Assembly: GCA_963704725.1 (NCBI GenBank)
Contig: OY969934.1
Coordinates: forward strand, 3,232,001-3,296,000
Reading direction: 5' to 3'
Source: an uncultured Actinomycetes bacterium
GTDB taxonomy: Bacteria > Actinomycetota > UBA4738 > HRBIN12
Length of the DNA: 64,000 bases
A model generated the notes under the pieces. It saw nothing but the letters and a program-made list of their open reading frames with translations. It was not told where the DNA came from and ran no database searches. Position numbers and translations under genes: made by a program. Below are positions 6,479-58,849 of the stretch, piece after piece. Position 1 is the stretch's first letter. The number at the start of each line of letters is the position of its first letter.

Positions 6479-6952
6479 ATGCCCGACACCCCCGCGCTCC
6501 GGGCGCTCGAGGGGACGAGCCTCGCGTTCGAGGTGGTCCGCACCGAGCGCGCCCGCAGCGCCGAGGAGAGCGCCGAGCGCCAGGGCATCGAGCTCGGCAG
6601 CCTCCTGCGCACGATCGTCGTCCGCCGCGGCGCGGGCGACTACGTCTTCGTGCTCGTGCCCGGGGGACGCGAGATCGATTGGAAGAAGCTGCGCGCCCAC
6701 CTCGGCGTCTCACGGCTCTCGCTGCCCGACGCCGAGGAGGCCAGGTCGGCCACCGGCTACGAGCGTGGGACCATCACGCCGTTCGGCTCCGCGACCGCGT
6801 GGCCGGTCGTCGCGGACGCGACCGTCCCGGCGCTCGCACGCGTCGCCATCGGCGGCGGCGCGCACGGCGTGAACCTCCACCTCGCCGGGCCCGACCTTGT
6901 GGCCACCCTCGGCGCGGCGGTCGCGGACGTCACGAAGCCCGGGGAGCGCTGA
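6479..6952 (+). CDS. YbaK/EbsC aminoacyl-tRNA deacylase family protein
   Basis: LLRTIVVR, FVLVPG.R, ATGYERGTITPFG, IGGGAHG motifs. Confidence 0.9.
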   Translation: MPDTPALRALEGTSLAFEVVRTERARSAEESAERQGIELGSLLRTIVVRRGAGDYVFVLVPGGREIDWKKLRAHLGVSRLSLPDAEEARSATGYERGTITPFGSATAWPVVADATVPALARVAIGGGAHGVNLHLAGPDLVATLGAAVADVTKPGER

Positions 6953-7008
6953 AGGTCTCCTCGGTCGCGGCGGTCGCGGAGCCCGCCTGCCGGTACCCTT
7001 CCGGGACC

Positions 7009-7995
7009 GTGCGCGTCTTCTCGGGCATCCAGCCGACCGGGCGGAAGCACCTCGGGAACTTCCTGGGGGCGATCCGCAACTACGTGGCCCTGCAGGCAGA
7101 CGGCGACGCCATCTACTGCGTCGTCGACCTGCACGCCATCACCGTCGAGGTCGACCCCGCCGAACTGCGCGAACGCCTCTACGACACCGCGGCGATCCTG
7201 CTCGCCGCCGGGCTCGACCCGGCGCGCTGCATCCTGTTCCGCCAGTCGGACGTCCGCGAGCACTCCGAGCTCTGCTGGATGCTCACGTCGGTCGCGTCCT
7301 ACGGCGAGGTCTCCCGGATGACGCAGTTCAAGGAGAAGTCCGAGCAGCAGCGCTCGTTCGTCTCGTCCGGGCTGTTCCTGTACCCGGTGCTCCAGGCCGC
7401 CGACATCCTCGCCTACCAGACGAACGAGGTGCCGGTCGGCGAGGACCAGAAACAGCACCTCGAGCTGGCGCGGAACATCGCCGAGCGGTTCAACACGCGG
7501 TTCGGGGACACGTTCACGGTCCCGGCGCACCGCATCCCCCCGGTGGCGGCGCGGGTCAAGGACCTCCAGGTGCCCGAGAGCCGGATGTCCACGACGGCGG
7601 GCACGGAGCAGGGGACCGTCTACATCCTCGACGAGGACGACGTGATCCGGAAGAAGTTCCGCTCGGCCGTCACCGACACCGGTCGGGAGATCGTCCGCGG
7701 GCCGGACAAGCCAGGCATCTCGAACCTCATCGAGCTCCTCGCCGCGGCCCGGGGCACGACCCCCGAGGAGGTGGAGAAGACGTACGCGGACGCGCCCGGA
7801 TACGCGGACTTCAAGCGCGACGTCGGCGAGGCGGTCGTCGAGCTCCTCGCGCCGGTGCGCGAGCGCTTCGGTCCGATCCGCGCCGACGTCACCGCCCTCG
7901 AGGAGACCCTGCGGGACGGAGCCGAGCGCGCACGGGCGATCGCGTCCGAGACCGTGGCCCTGGCGCGCTCGCGGATGGGGCTGGGGCCGGCGTAG
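7009..7995 (+). CDS. trpS: Tryptophan--tRNA ligase
   Basis: VFSGIQPTG, HLGN (HIGH), YPVLQAADIL, VPVGEDQKQHLEL, KMSKS-equivalent RMSTT. Confidence 0.95.
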   Translation: MRVFSGIQPTGRKHLGNFLGAIRNYVALQADGDAIYCVVDLHAITVEVDPAELRERLYDTAAILLAAGLDPARCILFRQSDVREHSELCWMLTSVASYGEVSRMTQFKEKSEQQRSFVSSGLFLYPVLQAADILAYQTNEVPVGEDQKQHLELARNIAERFNTRFGDTFTVPAHRIPPVAARVKDLQVPESRMSTTAGTEQGTVYILDEDDVIRKKFRSAVTDTGREIVRGPDKPGISNLIELLAAARGTTPEEVEKTYADAPGYADFKRDVGEAVVELLAPVRERFGPIRADVTALEETLRDGAERARAIASETVALARSRMGLGPA

Positions 7996-54922: not shown

Positions 54923-55642
54923 CTACCGATCGCCGACGCCGGCGAGCCGAGCGAGCTCCGCGATCTTCGTGAGAACGTAGCGGCGGCCGCTCCGCTCCAC
55001 GAACCCGCGACGCTGGAGGTCGGAGAGGATCCGCGTCACGTTCTCGCGGCTGCCCCCGCACAGGCTCGCCAGGTCGGCGTGGGTGACGACCGAGGGAACC
55101 ATGGCGCCGTCGTCGGGAAGCTCGTCGAGCGACGGGGTGACGAGCTGCAGGAGGCGCTTGGCCACGCGGCCCTTGAGGTCGAGGTAGAGCAGATCCTCGA
55201 CGAACGCCTCCTGCGACTGCACCTGACGCGCCAGCGCGCGCAGGAGTGCCTGTGAGACCGCGGGCTCCTCTGACAGGAAGTCCAGGAACACGGATGAGGA
55301 GACGACCCAGACCTGCGACTCCTCGAGCGCGAGCGCGGAGGCCGTGCGCATCATGCGGCCGAGGGCGCCGAGCTCCCCGAAGAACTGCGGCCGATCGAGC
55401 GTCGTGTGCAGCTGGCGGTGCCCTCCGGCGGACAGCGAGCTGATCTCGATGCGGCCCTCGACCACGAAGAACACCGCGGGCGAATCGTCGCCCTGATGGA
55501 ACAGATAGGTGCTGCGGCGGTACCGGCGCGTCGTCCCACGCTCGGCCAGTCGCGCGATCGTCCCCGGCGCCGCGCCCTCGAACAGCGGCGTCCGGGACAT
55601 CGCCTCCACGAGGGGTCCCGCCACGGGGGCCCGGCTCACCAT
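54923..55642 (-). CDS. Crp/Fnr-family regulator (cAMP-receptor type)
   Basis: LFHQGD, FFGELGAL...RTASA (phosphate-binding cassette), GRVAK.L, THADLASLCGGSRENVTR HTH; -10 TACGCT 7 nt before ATG. Confidence 0.9.
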   Translation of the reverse strand: MVSRAPVAGPLVEAMSRTPLFEGAAPGTIARLAERGTTRRYRRSTYLFHQGDDSPAVFFVVEGRIEISSLSAGGHRQLHTTLDRPQFFGELGALGRMMRTASALALEESQVWVVSSSVFLDFLSEEPAVSQALLRALARQVQSQEAFVEDLLYLDLKGRVAKRLLQLVTPSLDELPDDGAMVPSVVTHADLASLCGGSRENVTRILSDLQRRGFVERSGRRYVLTKIAELARLAGVGDR

Positions 55643-55685
55643 CGCTCGAAGCGTAGTCAATGCTCTCGGCCCCGGATAGTCCGCA

Positions 55686-55725
55686 GACGCCGCGGGCCCG
55701 GATCCTAGGACCCGGGCCCGGCGTC
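55686..55725. terminator. Long GC-rich hairpin downstream of the small peptide gene
   Basis: gacgccgcgggcccggatcc-ta-ggacccgggcccggcgtc imperfect inverted repeat. Confidence 0.6.
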
Positions 55726-55745
55726 GGGGTATCGGTTGTGGTGAC

Positions 55746-55865
55746 TCAGGCCTTCTTCATCTTCCTGAGTACCTTCTTCTTGGTCACCCGGGTCGCCGCC
55801 GCCTTCTTCGAGCTCTTCGCCGCCTTGGGGGCCGCGGCCTTCGGGGAGATCCGCTTCTCCGCCAC
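55746..55865 (-). CDS. 39-aa Lys/Ala-rich peptide MAEKRISPKAAAPKAAKSSKKAAATRVTKKKVLRKMKKA
   Basis: Strong RBS GGGAGGTG 5-6 nt before GTG, all Lys codons AAG, own candidate promoter and downstream hairpin; below the ORF-track cut-off. Confidence 0.8.
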   Translation of the reverse strand: MAEKRISPKAAAPKAAKSSKKAAATRVTKKKVLRKMKKA

Positions 55866-55939
55866 CGAAATCACCTCCCTCGTCCGATCCGGCGAGCAGG
55901 ACGTTCGCGCGGATCGTGCGCCCGGCGGCGGATCGAGGA

Positions 55940-55979
55940 TGTGACGTACGTCACGAACCGGAACGTGATGATCGTCACA
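55940..55979. promoter_or_regulatory. Two tandem CRP/GlxR boxes
   Basis: TGTGA-CGTACG-TCACG (55940-55955) and CGTGA-TGATCG-TCACA (55964-55979), each 9/10 to TGTGA-N6-TCACA. Confidence 0.8.
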
Positions 55980-55991
55980 TCCCGGGTCGGA

Positions 55992-56210
55992 TCACGACTC
56001 CGTGTCGAGCTCCGGCAGGTCGATCGGATCGGGCCGGGGCGTGCAGGCGCCGCAGTAGAGCGCGTCCTCCACGACGAGCGCGCGCATGACGTCCTTCGCG
56101 CGGTAGAGCTCCAGGACGTAGGGCATCGTCTCGACGTGGTCCTCGCAGATCGCCCGGCCACAGAAACGGCAGGTGCCGACGGCCGTCCTGCGGCAGTGCC
56201 AGCAATCCAT
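55992..56210 (-). CDS. Small Cys/His-rich zinc-finger protein (B-box-like)
   Basis: CWHC-x7-CRFC-x4-CEDH ... CGAC; RBS GGAGGG. Confidence 0.8.
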   Translation of the reverse strand: MDCWHCRRTAVGTCRFCGRAICEDHVETMPYVLELYRAKDVMRALVVEDALYCGACTPRPDPIDLPELDTES

Positions 56211-56243
56211 CGTCCCTCCCGCTCCCTCGGCCGCCCCGCGGCC

Positions 56244-58544
56244 CTAATGCTGCCAGGTCCGGTCGATCGCCGCGGCGGGGTTCAGCGTGCCCCTGCGGAA
56301 GGCCCCGGCCACCGCACGGCCGAACCCCTCCCGGTCCAGCCTGAACAGCCGCGCGGGCGTGCGGGCGACCACCGACGCCGTCCGCGGCACCCCGGCGAGC
56401 AGGGCGATCTCGCCGAAGTGCTCTCCCGGCCCCATCGTGCGCTCGAGCACGCCGCCTCGCACCACGTCGACGCGGCCCGACCCGATCGCGTAGAACGCGT
56501 CCCCCTCCTCCCCCTGCTCGATGATCGTCTCGCCGGGCGACACGTTCAGCCACGCCCCGCGCTCGAGCACCTCGGACAGATCGTCCTCGCCGAGCGCCCC
56601 GAAGGCGGGCAGGCGGCGAAGCTCGACCACGGCCTGCAGGGTCGGCGCGAACGCCGGGAGGCGCACGGTGTCGGCGAGGAGGCGATCGAACGTCCCCTCG
56701 GCAACCTCGAAGAGCTGGGCGTCGGTCACGGCTCGCACCGTGGCGCTCCGGGCCGCGGCGTCGACCAGCGCGAGCTCGCCGAACGACGCACCCCGGCCCA
56801 GGGACTGGAGCACGCGCTCCTTCCCGGAGTCGGGATCCTCCTCCACCACGTGCAGGACCCCCCGGCGCACGACGTAGAACGTCTCCGGGCGATCCCCCTG
56901 CCGGAACACCGACTTGCCCGCCGGGAAGCGCCGGAGGCGGACCCGGCCCGCGAGATCCGAGAGCACGTCCTCGGGCAGGTCCTCGAAGATCGGCAGGGCG
57001 TCGATGAGGGTTGCAGCCTCGACGCGCCACCTCGTCTGCATCCGGAACCGGATGCGCTCCACGGCCGCCCGAGCGCGACGCAGGAGAGACCGCACGAGCG
57101 AGATGGCGCCGCGGAGCACGGGCCCGGTGACGAACAACGCGAGCGCGACCAGCAGTGCCCGGCCCAGCGCCCCCCCTTGCCACAGCGCCCGGACGAGCCC
57201 GCCGAACACCTCGTCCCAGAAGATCACCGACCACCAGACCGAGACGATCGTGAAGGCCACCCCGAGCACGGCGTACAGCCCGAGGCCGGCCTCCTGTTTC
57301 GTGAGGTGCTCCCGGTGGCGGAGCTTGCGCCACAGGTCGTAGCGGAGGAACTGCAGCGAGCGAGGGCGCAGGTCGGGGACCTGGATAACGTCGGAAAGGA
57401 TCCAGTAGCCGTCGAGCTCGAGCATCGGCACGAGGTTCAGGAAGATCACGAAGTAGTTGAGAAGGGCGAACTTGTACAGCACGGGCGCGACGGGCGATCC
57501 GGGGAAGATCCAGACGAGCCCCGCGGCGATCCCGGCGATGATCAGCTCGACGTACGGCCCGGCGAACGACTGCACCATCCGCTGGCGCCGGTCGAGCATC
57601 AACCCGTCCGACGAATCGACGAAGAACGCGGGCGAGCCGAAGTAGATCATGAACCCCGCGCTCTTCACGCGGCGCCCGTAGTGCACCAGGACGACCGCGT
57701 GCCCCAGCTCGTGCATGAAGGTCAAGAAGTAGTTCATCCCGAGCAGGATCAGGGACTCCGCGACCGGCGAATCGCCCGAGAGCCCGAACCGGCCCGAGTG
57801 ATACACGGACCAGAACGCGAGCCCGCCGGCCACGGCGACGGTCAGAGCGGCCGCGCCCACAACCGGGATGAAGAACCATCGCAGGAGGTACCGGTGGAAC
57901 CACGACACCAGCCGGTGCGCCCCCTTCCATTCGATCGACAGAGTCCTGGCGAACGCCCGGGCGCGAGCCCGGGCCGCGGAGACGGGATCGATGGCCCGGC
58001 GCACGGCCGCGTCGACGTCCAGGAATGGCGTCGTCAGGAAGTTGCCGACGCGGAGCTGACGGACGAGGTCGGCGACCGCGGATAGGTCGAGGTCGCCCGA
58101 CCCGCGGAGGCGGTCGACGACGATCTCCGACACGGTTCGAGAACCGTCCATGAGCGGCAGAAGCTCGGTCTCTCCGGGCTCGAGCCGGTAGTGGACGAGA
58201 TCCCGGGGGTTCGCGATCATCGCGTAGTCGTTCCCCCACCGGAGGCGGAACGTCTTGACCTCGACGTCCGAGGCGAGCTGGGGACGGAAGGCCGCCGGGT
58301 CGAGCCGCTCGGCAAGCTCGTCCCACAGACCTCGCCCGTCCCGGTCCGTAACCGTTCCGGCCCCGAGTGCCGCCTCCACCCCTCGAGCCGGTCCCGCCGC
58401 CCCACCTTCAGTGGATCCGATCCCACGCTGAATCGACGCGTATGCGGAGGGGCGCGGTGCCCCTCGCCGCCTGGAGAGCACGAGGTTGCCGACGAACCCC
58501 CCCACGAGGACCGCGACCACCACGGCGAGCACCACGTCACGCAT
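56244..58544 (-). CDS. Membrane metalloprotease (M50/site-2 type) with N-terminal RRE/PqqD-like region and two C-terminal cNMP-binding domains
   Basis: LLPLMDGSRTVSEI...LVRQL...NFL winged-helix pattern; HELGH (57699-57713); AGP; NLVPMLELDGY; FGELAL...RSATVRA and FGEIAL...PRTASVVA cassettes. Confidence 0.85.
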   Translation of the reverse strand: MRDVVLAVVVAVLVGGFVGNLVLSRRRGAPRPSAYASIQRGIGSTEGGAAGPARGVEAALGAGTVTDRDGRGLWDELAERLDPAAFRPQLASDVEVKTFRLRWGNDYAMIANPRDLVHYRLEPGETELLPLMDGSRTVSEIVVDRLRGSGDLDLSAVADLVRQLRVGNFLTTPFLDVDAAVRRAIDPVSAARARARAFARTLSIEWKGAHRLVSWFHRYLLRWFFIPVVGAAALTVAVAGGLAFWSVYHSGRFGLSGDSPVAESLILLGMNYFLTFMHELGHAVVLVHYGRRVKSAGFMIYFGSPAFFVDSSDGLMLDRRQRMVQSFAGPYVELIIAGIAAGLVWIFPGSPVAPVLYKFALLNYFVIFLNLVPMLELDGYWILSDVIQVPDLRPRSLQFLRYDLWRKLRHREHLTKQEAGLGLYAVLGVAFTIVSVWWSVIFWDEVFGGLVRALWQGGALGRALLVALALFVTGPVLRGAISLVRSLLRRARAAVERIRFRMQTRWRVEAATLIDALPIFEDLPEDVLSDLAGRVRLRRFPAGKSVFRQGDRPETFYVVRRGVLHVVEEDPDSGKERVLQSLGRGASFGELALVDAAARSATVRAVTDAQLFEVAEGTFDRLLADTVRLPAFAPTLQAVVELRRLPAFGALGEDDLSEVLERGAWLNVSPGETIIEQGEEGDAFYAIGSGRVDVVRGGVLERTMGPGEHFGEIALLAGVPRTASVVARTPARLFRLDREGFGRAVAGAFRRGTLNPAAAIDRTWQH

Positions 58545-58580
58545 CGGCGCATCTTCGGCTCCGGGCCCCCCGGGGGCAAG

Positions 58581-58596
58581 GGTGACGGATGTCACC
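58581..58596. promoter_or_regulatory. CRP-like box GGTGA-CGGATG-TCACC
   Basis: GTGA-N6-TCAC palindrome about 45 nt upstream of the protease ATG, in a divergent intergenic region. Confidence 0.55.
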
Positions 58597-58678
58597 ACCG
58601 GTCCGTGCGTCCGGTCACCGAGATCGAACGGGCTCGACGCCTAGCCTGCGCCCAGACGTTGCATCGAGGAGGTGCGAG

Positions 58679-58849
58679 ATGCTGAGTGACGAGGTCGGGA
58701 GGTACAAGATCTCCGAGCGGGTCCGCGAGGGCGAGGCGGAGCGGCTGGCCCGCCGGACTCGCCGGGCTCATGCGGCCGACGAGCGGAGCCTGACTCGGCG
58801 GGTCGGTCGAGCCGCGATCGCCCTCGTCGCGTGGCCCATGCGGCACTGA
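58679..58849 (+). CDS. Small Arg-rich hypothetical protein (56 aa)
   Basis: RBS GAGGAGG; MLSDEVGRYKISERVREGEAERLARR... Confidence 0.65.
   Translation: MLSDEVGRYKISERVREGEAERLARRTRRAHAADERSLTRRVGRAAIALVAWPMRH

Follow-up and report, generated by a model that had tools for sequence, protein, structure and literature searches.

A conserved gene cassette of uncultured Actinomycetota with a putative cyclic-nucleotide-gated RRE-site-2 protease, a zinc-finger protein, a Lys-rich peptide, and a Crp regulator

Site-2 proteases such as SpoIVFB are thought to be gated by appended CBS or PDZ domains, and SpoIVFB removes an N-terminal piece from its substrate, a soluble pro-protein. In this work, we examined a 64-kb stretch of DNA (hereafter the window) from an uncultured Actinomycetes bacterium (assembly GCA_963704725.1, contig OY969934.1, positions 3,232,001-3,296,000 of the forward strand). 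It contains a cassette of four genes, which encode an M50-type (site-2 protease, S2P) membrane metalloprotease bearing an RRE (RiPP recognition element, where RiPPs are peptides made by ribosomes and modified after translation) and two cyclic-nucleotide-binding (cNMP) domains, a small zinc (Zn)-finger protein, a Lys-rich peptide, and a Crp-type regulator. In 151 genomes of the class, the four genes are found or lacking as a set. For the daptides, a leader-removing protease has been described in which an RRE is joined N-terminally to a site-2 protease; daptide chemistry needs a C-terminal Thr in the precursor, and leader positions read E-L-D-P-M-E-x-P (bioRxiv 10.1101/2023.03.08.531785).

The daptide proteases DapP/MpaP (NF041824; Ren et al.) resemble the protease of this locus in having an N-terminal RRE and an HExxH M50 core, with a short precursor gene close by. 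However, the protease found here scores below the cut-off of that family (166 vs 300 bits) and has two extra C-terminal cNMP domains. The DapB, decarboxylase, aminotransferase, and methyltransferase genes of daptide clusters are all missing from the cassette, which differs further in its polybasic precursor not ending in Thr, its Zn-finger partner, and its dedicated Crp. The epipeptide maturation metalloprotease YydH/LiaK (NF058609) also combines an M50-type HExxH membrane protease with a small peptide, but here the match reaches 47.9 bits against a cut-off of 225, and the cassette has neither a radical-SAM epimerase nor an ABC exporter. By general comparison, SpoIVFB-type proteases are similar in joining an M50 core to an appended ligand-binding domain, whereas the protease described here has tandem cNMP domains plus an RRE, and a DUF2180-like Zn-finger partner in place of BofA/SpoIVFA. 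The regulator is similar to actinobacterial Crp/GlxR proteins in its full-length sequence, RE..R helix, and TGTGA-N6-TCACA-type sites. It differs from these in being inherited with the cassette and missing with it, and in its promoter, which has up to four sites phased by 24 bp and a peptide gene placed before crp. Finally, PrsW (PF13367)-Zn-finger pairs likewise consist of an intramembrane metalloprotease and a DUF2180-like Zn finger with the same C-terminal tail, but the protease fold is unrelated and there is no RRE, cNMP domain, Lys-rich peptide, or Crp. A preliminary description of the locus, made from the sequence alone, knew of no system with this layout, and the literature that we searched does not describe DUF2180, an RRE-M50 protease with cNMP domains, or the cassette; the supplementary tables of daptide and RRE studies lie outside that search and might list the family. 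One candidate article (PMC3239186) proved unrelated.

The four genes occupy window positions 54923-58598 and are co-oriented, as the preliminary description states, on the minus strand. The genes and the protease domains are as follows.

Window 56244..58544, minus strand: protease (RRE-M50(S2P)-2x cNMP membrane metalloprotease), 766 aa from ATG; from Pfam, NCBIfam, and motifs
Window 58035..58328, minus strand: predicted N-terminal RRE (PqqD-like) domain, about aa 73-170; from an AlphaFold2 model and Foldseek
Window 57030..57902, minus strand: M50 transmembrane catalytic core, about aa 215-505; from invariant motifs and hydrophobic segments
Window 56247..56933, minus strand: two C-terminal cyclic-nucleotide-binding domains, about aa 538-645 and 655-766; from PF00027 and invariant motifs
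Window 55992..56210, minus strand: Cys/His-rich (DUF2180-like) Zn-finger protein, 72 aa; from family alignments and adjacency
Window 55746..55865, minus strand: Lys-rich peptide gene, 39 aa; from the conserved N-terminus, ATRVT motif, and polybasic tail
Window 54923..55660, minus strand: crp, Crp/GlxR-type cAMP receptor transcription factor; from Pfam and solved-structure relatives

The protease has an alternative GTG start at 58598, which would add 18 residues (784 aa). Pfam identifies cNMP_binding (PF00027) in two stretches (139.1 bits) and Peptidase_M50 (32.4 bits, cut-off 27.2), and the NCBIfam model daptide_HExxH (NF041824) aligns over positions 12-366 of 379 with 166.1 bits (E = 1.3e-48), short of its equivalog cut-off of 300 bits. 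The zinc-site motifs HELGH (aa 278) and NLVPMLELDG (aa 370) are both present, along with several hydrophobic segments, one of which is at the extreme N-terminus. Among 50 protease sequences, the catalytic residues H214, E215, H218, N306, P309, D314, and G315 (alignment numbering) are invariant, as are the cNMP phosphate-binding positions G525/E526/R535 and G647/E648/R657/A659; overall, the G-E...R-[ST]-A positions show little or no variation in either of the two cNMP domains, the second of which contains FGEIALLAGVPRTA at aa 710 of the protease.

The N-terminal domain is predicted to adopt the RRE/PqqD fold, as the preliminary description had proposed. Based on an alignment of 47 sequences, the AlphaFold2 model of aa 65-215 has a pLDDT of 80.3 and consists of three strands followed by helices. 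The top Foldseek match of this model in the PDB is PqqD (5sxy, E = 2.2e-3), followed by LynD (4v1v/4v1t), TruD (4bs9), TbiB1 (5v1u/5v1v), the PbtF RRE (8t19), the lasso peptide protein B1 (6jx3), and CteB (5wgg). The matches 5sxy, 4v1v, 4bs9, 5v1u, and 8t19 have probabilities of 0.99-1.00; their E-values are modest, with none reaching 0.001, and the list is uniformly RRE. The alignment to NF041824 covers this domain as well.

With the protease as query, 1281 of 8000 candidate proteins scored passed an E-value of 0.001. The best 120 are all at least 61% identical and all from uncultured Actinomycetota, and many homologs carry the JGI name "putative peptide zinc metalloprotease protein." An extra hydrophobic helix ahead of the RRE (window 58461-58544, minus strand) is found here and in several relatives, and homologs of about 722 aa do not have it. 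In four genomes (G053, G097, G101, and G138), the protease is in pieces with in-frame TGA stops, and crp is also fragmented in G097 and G138; these could be cases of whole-cassette pseudogenization or assembly frameshifts. The closest RRE-M50 relative without cNMP domains (G311, 393 aa) has no obvious small basic open reading frame (ORF) or Zn finger in its ORF list. A role in anti-phage defense, e.g., of the Pycsar type, was considered and rejected because the PADLOC matches (PycTIR, Effector, and PycC) are confined to the cNMP domains; PADLOC gave no match for the Zn finger, the peptide, or a 56-aa small ORF described below.

The linkage among the four parts is evident from their distribution in the class. 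Among the 151 genomes sampled, 119 had a match to the protease; one of these (G021) matched by the cNMP part alone, which leaves 118 protease-positive and 33 negative genomes. A crp match with at least 51% identity (fragments counted) was found in 114 of the 118 positive genomes vs two of the 33 negative ones (G021 and G131), and the misses are G092 and three genomes in which the protease is at a contig end (G010, G102, and G113). A degenerate DNA pattern of the peptide N-terminus, which is strict and misses the window's own peptide (AEKR), was found in 72/118 positive genomes vs 0/33 negative ones (reversed control: 0/151). The Zn finger was found in none of the five protease-negative genomes examined, which are 92-97% complete. 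The solitary crp genes of G021 and G131 have neither boxes nor a Lys-rich ORF ahead of them, and seven other protease-negative genomes, all from one genus, have a 44-46% identical Crp in a different context. One genus has seven positives among 19 genomes, and therefore a loss or gain of the whole set occurred within a single genus. The tallies for the class and the phylum include unpublished genomes (G006, G025, G032, G058, G059, G082, G092, G093, G100, G119, G123, and G136).

Gene order was examined in three sets of loci, and the main synteny counts (80 and 39 loci) are based on public contigs of metagenome-assembled genomes (MAGs). In 30 loci from the class sample, the Zn finger follows the protease in all 30, a crp of >50% identity lies within 1.5 kb in 26, and GTGA-N6-TCAC cores occur right past the Zn-finger stop in 27. 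A Zn-finger profile search of public contigs returned 195 relatives, of which 80 loci were kept; these are from Actinomycetota or unclassified "bacterium" MAGs, except for two with other labels. The protease is immediately upstream of the Zn finger in 80/80 loci, boxes are found after the Zn finger in 74/80, and crp is downstream on the same strand in 75/80, with all five misses due to contig ends within 430 nt. In the 39 loci whose 6-kb flanks are complete, crp is found in 38, moaA in 24, tlpA in 11, and mauE in six. Because crp is retained while these neighbors decay, the cassette outlives its surroundings. The preliminary description had suggested a check of whether its components are conserved near protease homologs, and the peptide, Zn finger, crp, and Crp boxes do recur there. 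Within this lineage, the cassette behaves as a single-copy core gene set that is almost universal.

Beyond the class, full-length proteases were found in 32 of 301 genomes sampled from the phylum, namely, in the home order and in two families of another class (2/10 and 13/21 genomes). In the clade of the other class (L119-L126), the protease is about 40% identical and the Zn finger directly downstream is 62-73% identical. No GTGA-N6-TCAC boxes were found past the Zn finger in this clade; in L120, two tandem Lys-rich ORFs come next after the Zn finger, and then a small protein and a Crp-family paralog of 216 aa (31% identical). Rearranged loci were also found. The order is protease, peptide, peptide in L129, where the Zn finger is next to a Crp-like gene 1.8 kb away, and Zn finger, protease, peptide, peptide in L131. 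In five loci (L098, L105, and L133-L135), an insertion encoding an HtrA-like protease separates the Zn finger from the boxes, peptide, and crp; this arrangement comes partly from the unpublished genomes G059 and G123 (L133 and L134), and the public contigs L098 and L105 agree. The best single argument for the peptide belonging to the RRE lies in where Lys-rich ORFs occur: they are found with the RRE-bearing protease in both clades and in the rearranged loci, but neither beside PrsW-Zn-finger pairs nor beside solitary crp genes.

Genes for trypsin/HtrA-PDZ-type serine proteases are located in or beside the cassette in L133 (4918-6045), L134 (4757-5671), L098 (~6691-7602), and L129 (6274-7149), and Zn-ribbon-cyclase-AAA-TPR genes (cyclase-STAND) adjoin it in L129 and L134. 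The cyclase and HtrA were rejected as general cassette members: in tblastn searches with the L134 proteins, they were found in 0/39 and 1/39 full-flank loci, respectively, and are therefore lineage-specific additions.

The Zn-finger gene begins 33 nt past the protease stop. Its product has seven Cys and two His that are invariant among 28 sequences, a mean column identity of 76-83% across alignments, and a conserved acidic C-terminal tail (PRPDP.DLPELD). The preliminary description labeled this protein a B-box protein. Neither Pfam (PF00643) nor a fold comparison supports this label: the only Pfam matches are sub-threshold (C5HCH, 23.2 vs 26.3 bits; DUF2180, PF09947, 18.6 vs 22.2 bits, spanning only the first 27 residues), and the AlphaFold2 model (pLDDT 80.1) has no significant PDB fold match, the best being the NSD3 C5HCH domain (E = 0.69). 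The nearest ESM Atlas clusters are DUF2180-like (0.96-0.97), with PF09947 in 12-28% of their members. By these comparisons, the protein appears DUF2180-like, and the B-box label has no support. A predicted complex between aa 65-766 of the protease and the Zn finger had an ipSAE of 0.00 in two runs, made without controls, and weighs neither for nor against a contact.

In the phylum sample, the Zn finger was found in 34/301 genomes, 31 of which also have the protease. The one genome with a protease and no Zn finger is 62% complete and has the gene cut by a contig end. The three genomes with a Zn finger and no RRE protease (G222, G383, and G395) all have a 43-46%-identical Zn finger adjoining a PrsW-family intramembrane metalloprotease (PF13367, 60-80 bits).

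L156 4996-6413; L157 5030-6342; L158 4624-5859: PrsW-Zn-finger loci in three genomes from other actinobacterial families

These PrsW-paired Zn fingers share the C-terminal tail P.PEPI.MPELA, and a small winged-helix-like protein is next in two of the three loci (L156 and L158). No Lys-rich ORF was found near the pairs (0/3 loci). In L157, a gene for a GGDEF-EAL-PAS protein is upstream of the pair. Longer proteins with the Zn-finger domain gave 18 matches, nearly all of which are singletons, and none is a convincing natural fusion: among the four that were read, two (P0122 and P0129) look like frame-shifted or read-through calls. P0129 is a 590-aa annotated protein of Phytohabitans flavus, an actinomycete that has been cultured; its C-terminal end holds a Zn-finger sequence of 59% identity, and its middle part looks like a wrong-frame translation.

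The peptide ORF has a GGAGG located 8 nt ahead of its GTG start, and 38 of its 39 third codon positions are G or C, as counted from the printed codons. A survey of 135 related loci identified 126 such ORFs in 118 loci, corresponding to 98 unique peptides of 35-67 aa (median 45). Their composition is 24% K, 17% A, 10.5% R, and 10% T, with no Cys and no Trp. The N-terminus, M-A-[ED]-K-K-[IV]-[ST]-P-K-[AK]-[PA], is much more conserved than the C-terminus (mean pairwise identity 0.63 for the N-terminal 11 aa vs 0.16 for the C-terminal 15 aa), and the third codon positions in the conserved N-terminal codons vary, which speaks for selection on the protein. An A-[AT]-[RG]-V motif occurs near position 24 in 77/98 peptides. 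The tail past this motif has 8-40 residues, of which 50% are K+R and very few are acidic. In 43/98 peptides, it includes exact tandem repeats with units of 3-6 residues; the units vary by lineage, e.g., KRQT, KVQ, RVK, KKLSH, KTLAK, and RVASK. A leader/core-like pattern of conservation, as expected of RiPP precursors, is found in this family; the last residue is Thr in 7/98 peptides. The peptide matches no family in Pfam, NCBIfam, or PADLOC. The nearest named Atlas cluster is the histone-like HC2 family, which we take only as a lead because the score is only 0.83. Tandem duplications of the peptide gene are found in L022-L024, L045, L100, L102, L106, L110, L120, L129, and L131; the copies often have unlike repeat tails, and those in L100 are identical.

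The regulator contains the Pfam domains cNMP_binding, HTH_Crp_2, and Crp. Its best solved relatives are GlxR (3r6s/4byy) and the Mycobacterium tuberculosis CRP (3d0s/3i54), with E-values of 1e-27 to 1e-29 and matches over residues 16-240, i.e., the full length. The recognition helix reads RENVTR, which agrees with the RE..R helix noted in the preliminary description. The elements around the peptide promoter are as follows.

Window 55964..55979, no strand assigned: distal Crp box, one mismatch to TGTGA-N6-TCACA; centre at about -65.5 from the inferred -10
Window 55940..55955, no strand assigned: proximal Crp box, one mismatch to TGTGA-N6-TCACA; centre at about -41.5 from the inferred -10
Window 55913..55918, minus strand: putative -10-like hexamer CACGAT (family pattern N-A-N-G-A-T); from its conserved position relative to the Crp boxes
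Window 55686..55729, minus strand: GC-rich hairpin lying after the peptide stop and before the crp start; minimum free energy -43.9 kcal/mol, z -1.96
Window 58581..58596, no strand assigned: weak Crp-like box with two mismatches in the divergent region upstream of the protease; from a pattern match

The two boxes ahead of the peptide, both located in the 126-nt spacer between the Zn finger and the peptide, are the sole matches to TGTGA-N6-TCACA with at most one mismatch in the 64 kb. At least one GTGA-N6-TCAC core is present in 90 of 99 distinct peptide upstream regions, and at least two in 63, with spacings of 24 nt (51 cases), 23 nt (16), or 22 nt (5). The third box, reported ahead of the protease in the preliminary description, fared differently: at its stringency of two mismatches, the window has 10 matches vs 9.7 expected, and a box core is found at this place in 13 of 95 non-redundant related loci, mostly close kin. 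Taken together, the preliminary description holds for the genes, the two peptide boxes, and the modeled RRE fold, whereas the B-box label and a general box upstream of the protease are wrong or unsupported.

In an analysis that tolerated a degenerate last half-site in the Crp boxes, the 69 regions that contain both elements include 48 with a conserved N-A-N-G-A-T hexamer whose start is 29-30 nt downstream from the centre of a box, and further boxes are located 52-54 nt (61 boxes), 75-78 nt (50), and 98-100 nt (11) upstream of the hexamer. The proximal box in the window is centred 29.5 nt upstream of CACGAT, which is the modal distance. If the hexamer represents the -10 element, the Crp sites would be at about -41.5, -65.5, -89.5, and -113.5, a layout that suggests an activator. 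In Escherichia coli, the same geometry is found for CRP at class II and tandem CRP-activated promoters. Because a scan of 55600-56050 for sigma-70 promoters and T-run terminators found nothing, the promoter model is based on comparative phasing. Downstream of the peptide stop, a hairpin with z < -2 against mononucleotide shuffles was found in 87 of 129 related stretches, a set obtained with a looser ORF filter. The conserved hairpin has 11-17 bp, is GC-rich, and has no T-run; its possible role is that of a terminator, attenuator, or 3'-stabilizing element that sets the ratio of peptide to Crp. A hairpin at this place suggests that the peptide is made from a discrete transcript and that read-through into crp is partial.

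The GTGA-N6-TCAC core occurs 87 times genome-wide vs about 24 expected from base composition. Good intergenic Crp-type boxes also precede other genes, at G000:C1 1355 (HNH/DUF222 gene) and 989946 (CpaB pilus gene), and two boxes 32 nt apart precede a FAD monooxygenase gene (G000:C1 3036842 and 3036874). Others are located at G000:C1 3046934 (CcdA/DsbD-like), 2308560 (M23 peptidase), and 1420802 (atpI-like). The class III cyclase domain (PF00211) is matched 22 times in the 3.45-Mb genome. A Crp-type core (G000:C1:2607162) is located 49 nt upstream of one cyclase-AAA gene (2605081-2607120), which hints at Crp feedback on cAMP synthesis.

We tentatively propose, with confidence somewhat short of even, that the cassette is a self-contained cAMP-wired module for regulated proteolysis and peptide maturation, in which one nucleotide both induces the peptide and gates its processing. 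Judging from the promoter anatomy, Crp-cAMP would activate a promoter that has no recognizable -35 element and one to four sites 24 bp apart. This promoter would drive the small precursor gene and, by read-through of the hairpin, crp, such that positive feedback could occur. The precursor pairs a conserved "leader" at the N-terminus (M-A-E-K-K-I-[ST]-P-K-A-P ... A-T-R-V-T) with a tail of short repeats that is polybasic and hypervariable. The cytoplasmic RRE, with a fold seen in the model, would dock the leader, and the C-terminal cNMP domains, with motifs seen in the alignment, would gate the protease by the same nucleotide. Expression and processing together would then form an AND gate or a feed-forward loop that releases the polybasic tail. 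The Zn finger, probably co-transcribed with the protease as an obligate partner, could be a regulatory subunit, an adaptor, or an inhibitor. What the sequences and models show are the domains, the fold, the invariant catalytic and nucleotide-binding motifs, the linkage and co-occurrence, and the promoter geometry; every physical interaction in this scheme, including the binding of the peptide by the RRE, its cleavage, and the gating of cleavage by a cyclic nucleotide, is inferred. More tentatively still, this may be a minimal ribosomal-peptide system of a previously undescribed kind, in which a dedicated Crp and a cNMP-gated RRE-site-2 protease make an unmodified, hypervariable, polybasic peptide doubly dependent on the nucleotide. 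The DUF2180-type Zn finger would then be a general partner of M50 and PrsW intramembrane proteases, and the released tail, diversified among close relatives by slippage, would be a lineage-specific effector or signal, either for silencing the nucleoid or ribosomes in starvation or as a secreted cationic peptide.

Several points weigh against the peptide being matured by this protease. Unlike typical substrates of site-2 proteases, the peptide carries a high charge and lacks any hydrophobic or membrane-spanning stretch. There is a single hydrophobic residue in its conserved N-terminus, a poor basis for the strand addition by which RREs usually bind. With 50% K+R and repeat periods of 3-6 residues, the tail suits a small protein that binds nucleic acids no less than it suits a secreted product. 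As the preliminary description had noted, the ORF list and Pfam identify no tailoring enzyme or ABC exporter in the window neighborhood. In the loci split by an insertion (L098, L105, and L133-L135), the peptide stays with crp, not with the protease. G092 has the protease and Zn finger without the peptide or crp; it is the sole such genome, and this exception comes from unpublished data. Furthermore, related genomes are not independent, and the co-occurrence counts therefore overstate the support and should be read as a pattern rather than a statistic. The Zn finger itself is a competing candidate substrate because it is linked to two unrelated protease families.

This last point leads to the rival that we consider unlikely but closest to the proposed module, namely, that the Zn finger, not the peptide, is the substrate or controller of the protease. 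It would be a soluble anti-regulator or adaptor, e.g., one that holds Crp or the protease inactive, and the peptide would be an unprocessed, Crp-induced, small basic binder of DNA, RNA, or ribosomes. The preliminary description had not considered the Zn finger as an alternative partner or substrate. The Zn finger is the most conserved part of the cassette (76-83%) and the one most tightly linked to the protease (80/80), remains 62-73% identical where the protease is merely about 40% identical, and has an acidic Leu/Pro-rich tail that resembles acidic RiPP leader motifs, such as the daptide leader positions E-L-D-P-M-E-x-P. The PrsW and Zn-finger pairs (3/3 distant genomes), with a winged-helix protein in two, parallel the set of protease, Zn finger, and Crp, and the HC2 histone-like cluster nearest to the peptide (0.83) provides a lead for a nucleic-acid binder. 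However, the Zn finger has no membrane segment, a contact between the Zn finger and Crp is hypothetical, and the restriction of the Lys-rich peptides to the RRE-bearing protease would be left unexplained. A distinctly less probable rival is that the genes share a cAMP/Crp regulon and nothing more, such that the protease acts by intramembrane proteolysis on a membrane substrate that is unlinked, and the roles of the peptide and of the Zn finger are unrelated. The peptide and crp do have their own promoter, the core is enriched genome-wide (87 vs ~24 expected), and Crp-type cores precede genes for the CpaB pilus protein, the FAD monooxygenase (two), the M23 peptidase, an adenylate cyclase, and the atpI-like protein. 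Yet, across genera, loss or retention affects all four parts jointly, they remain together while the flanks change, and the distant clade, with a different Crp paralog and no boxes, still has the same gene set.

Two further explanations appear very improbable. One is a classical RiPP or bacteriocin locus with its tailoring and export genes elsewhere in the genome, which would account for the precursor conservation resembling a leader and core, for the tandem precursor duplications in some loci, and for the RRE-fused M50 peptidase, a hallmark of daptide clusters (bioRxiv 10.1101/2023.03.08.531785). It fits poorly with the shortfall against the daptide cut-off (166 vs 300 bits), with the scarcity of Thr-ending peptides (7/98), with peptides devoid of Cys, Trp, or other usual modification residues, and with the lack of tailoring and ABC exporter genes in the window neighborhood. 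A near-universal single-copy core set is also unlike the patchy distribution of biosynthetic clusters. The other, which we regard as equally improbable, is that the small ORF is a mere regulatory upstream ORF or leader for crp with a functionless product. The ORF is indeed 85-130 nt upstream of crp, behind a putative Crp-dependent promoter and ahead of the conserved hairpin, and it travels with crp in the split loci. This would not explain why its N-terminus is conserved as protein while third codon positions vary, why it has a strong conserved Shine-Dalgarno sequence and tandem copies, why copies occur behind the protease and away from crp (L129 and L131), or why the ORF is missing upstream of crp where the protease is missing.

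For the surroundings of the cassette, Pfam identifies a convergent moaA, a MoCF/XdhC fusion, a TlpA-like thioredoxin, and MauE. A divergent 56-aa ORF (window 58679-58849, plus strand; pattern REAEAERLAR...WP.KH) is located upstream of the protease. It is found in 53 related loci, including 21 of the 39 full-flank loci, every time on the opposite strand to the protease, and it has no match among Pfam and PADLOC families. The small protein between the peptides and the Crp paralog in L120 is possibly similar to it. A search of public sequencing runs returned four DNA runs with small shares (0.05-0.09) and no RNA run among them.

If the proposed module is correct, the protease would be the first known case of an intramembrane protease under the direct control of a cyclic nucleotide, and the cassette would provide a post-translational arm of actinobacterial cAMP signaling. 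It would also represent an RRE-dependent leader peptidase outside a biosynthetic cluster, which would extend RRE biology beyond the tailoring of natural products to signal-controlled proteolysis. The uncharacterized DUF2180-like Zn-finger family would gain a testable role as a partner of two unrelated membrane protease families. The peptides (35-67 aa, polybasic, with fast-evolving repeat tails) constitute a newly defined family that gene callers are likely to miss. Given that nearly all members of a large, uncultured lineage of actinobacteria have the module, it is probably a central physiological switch there.

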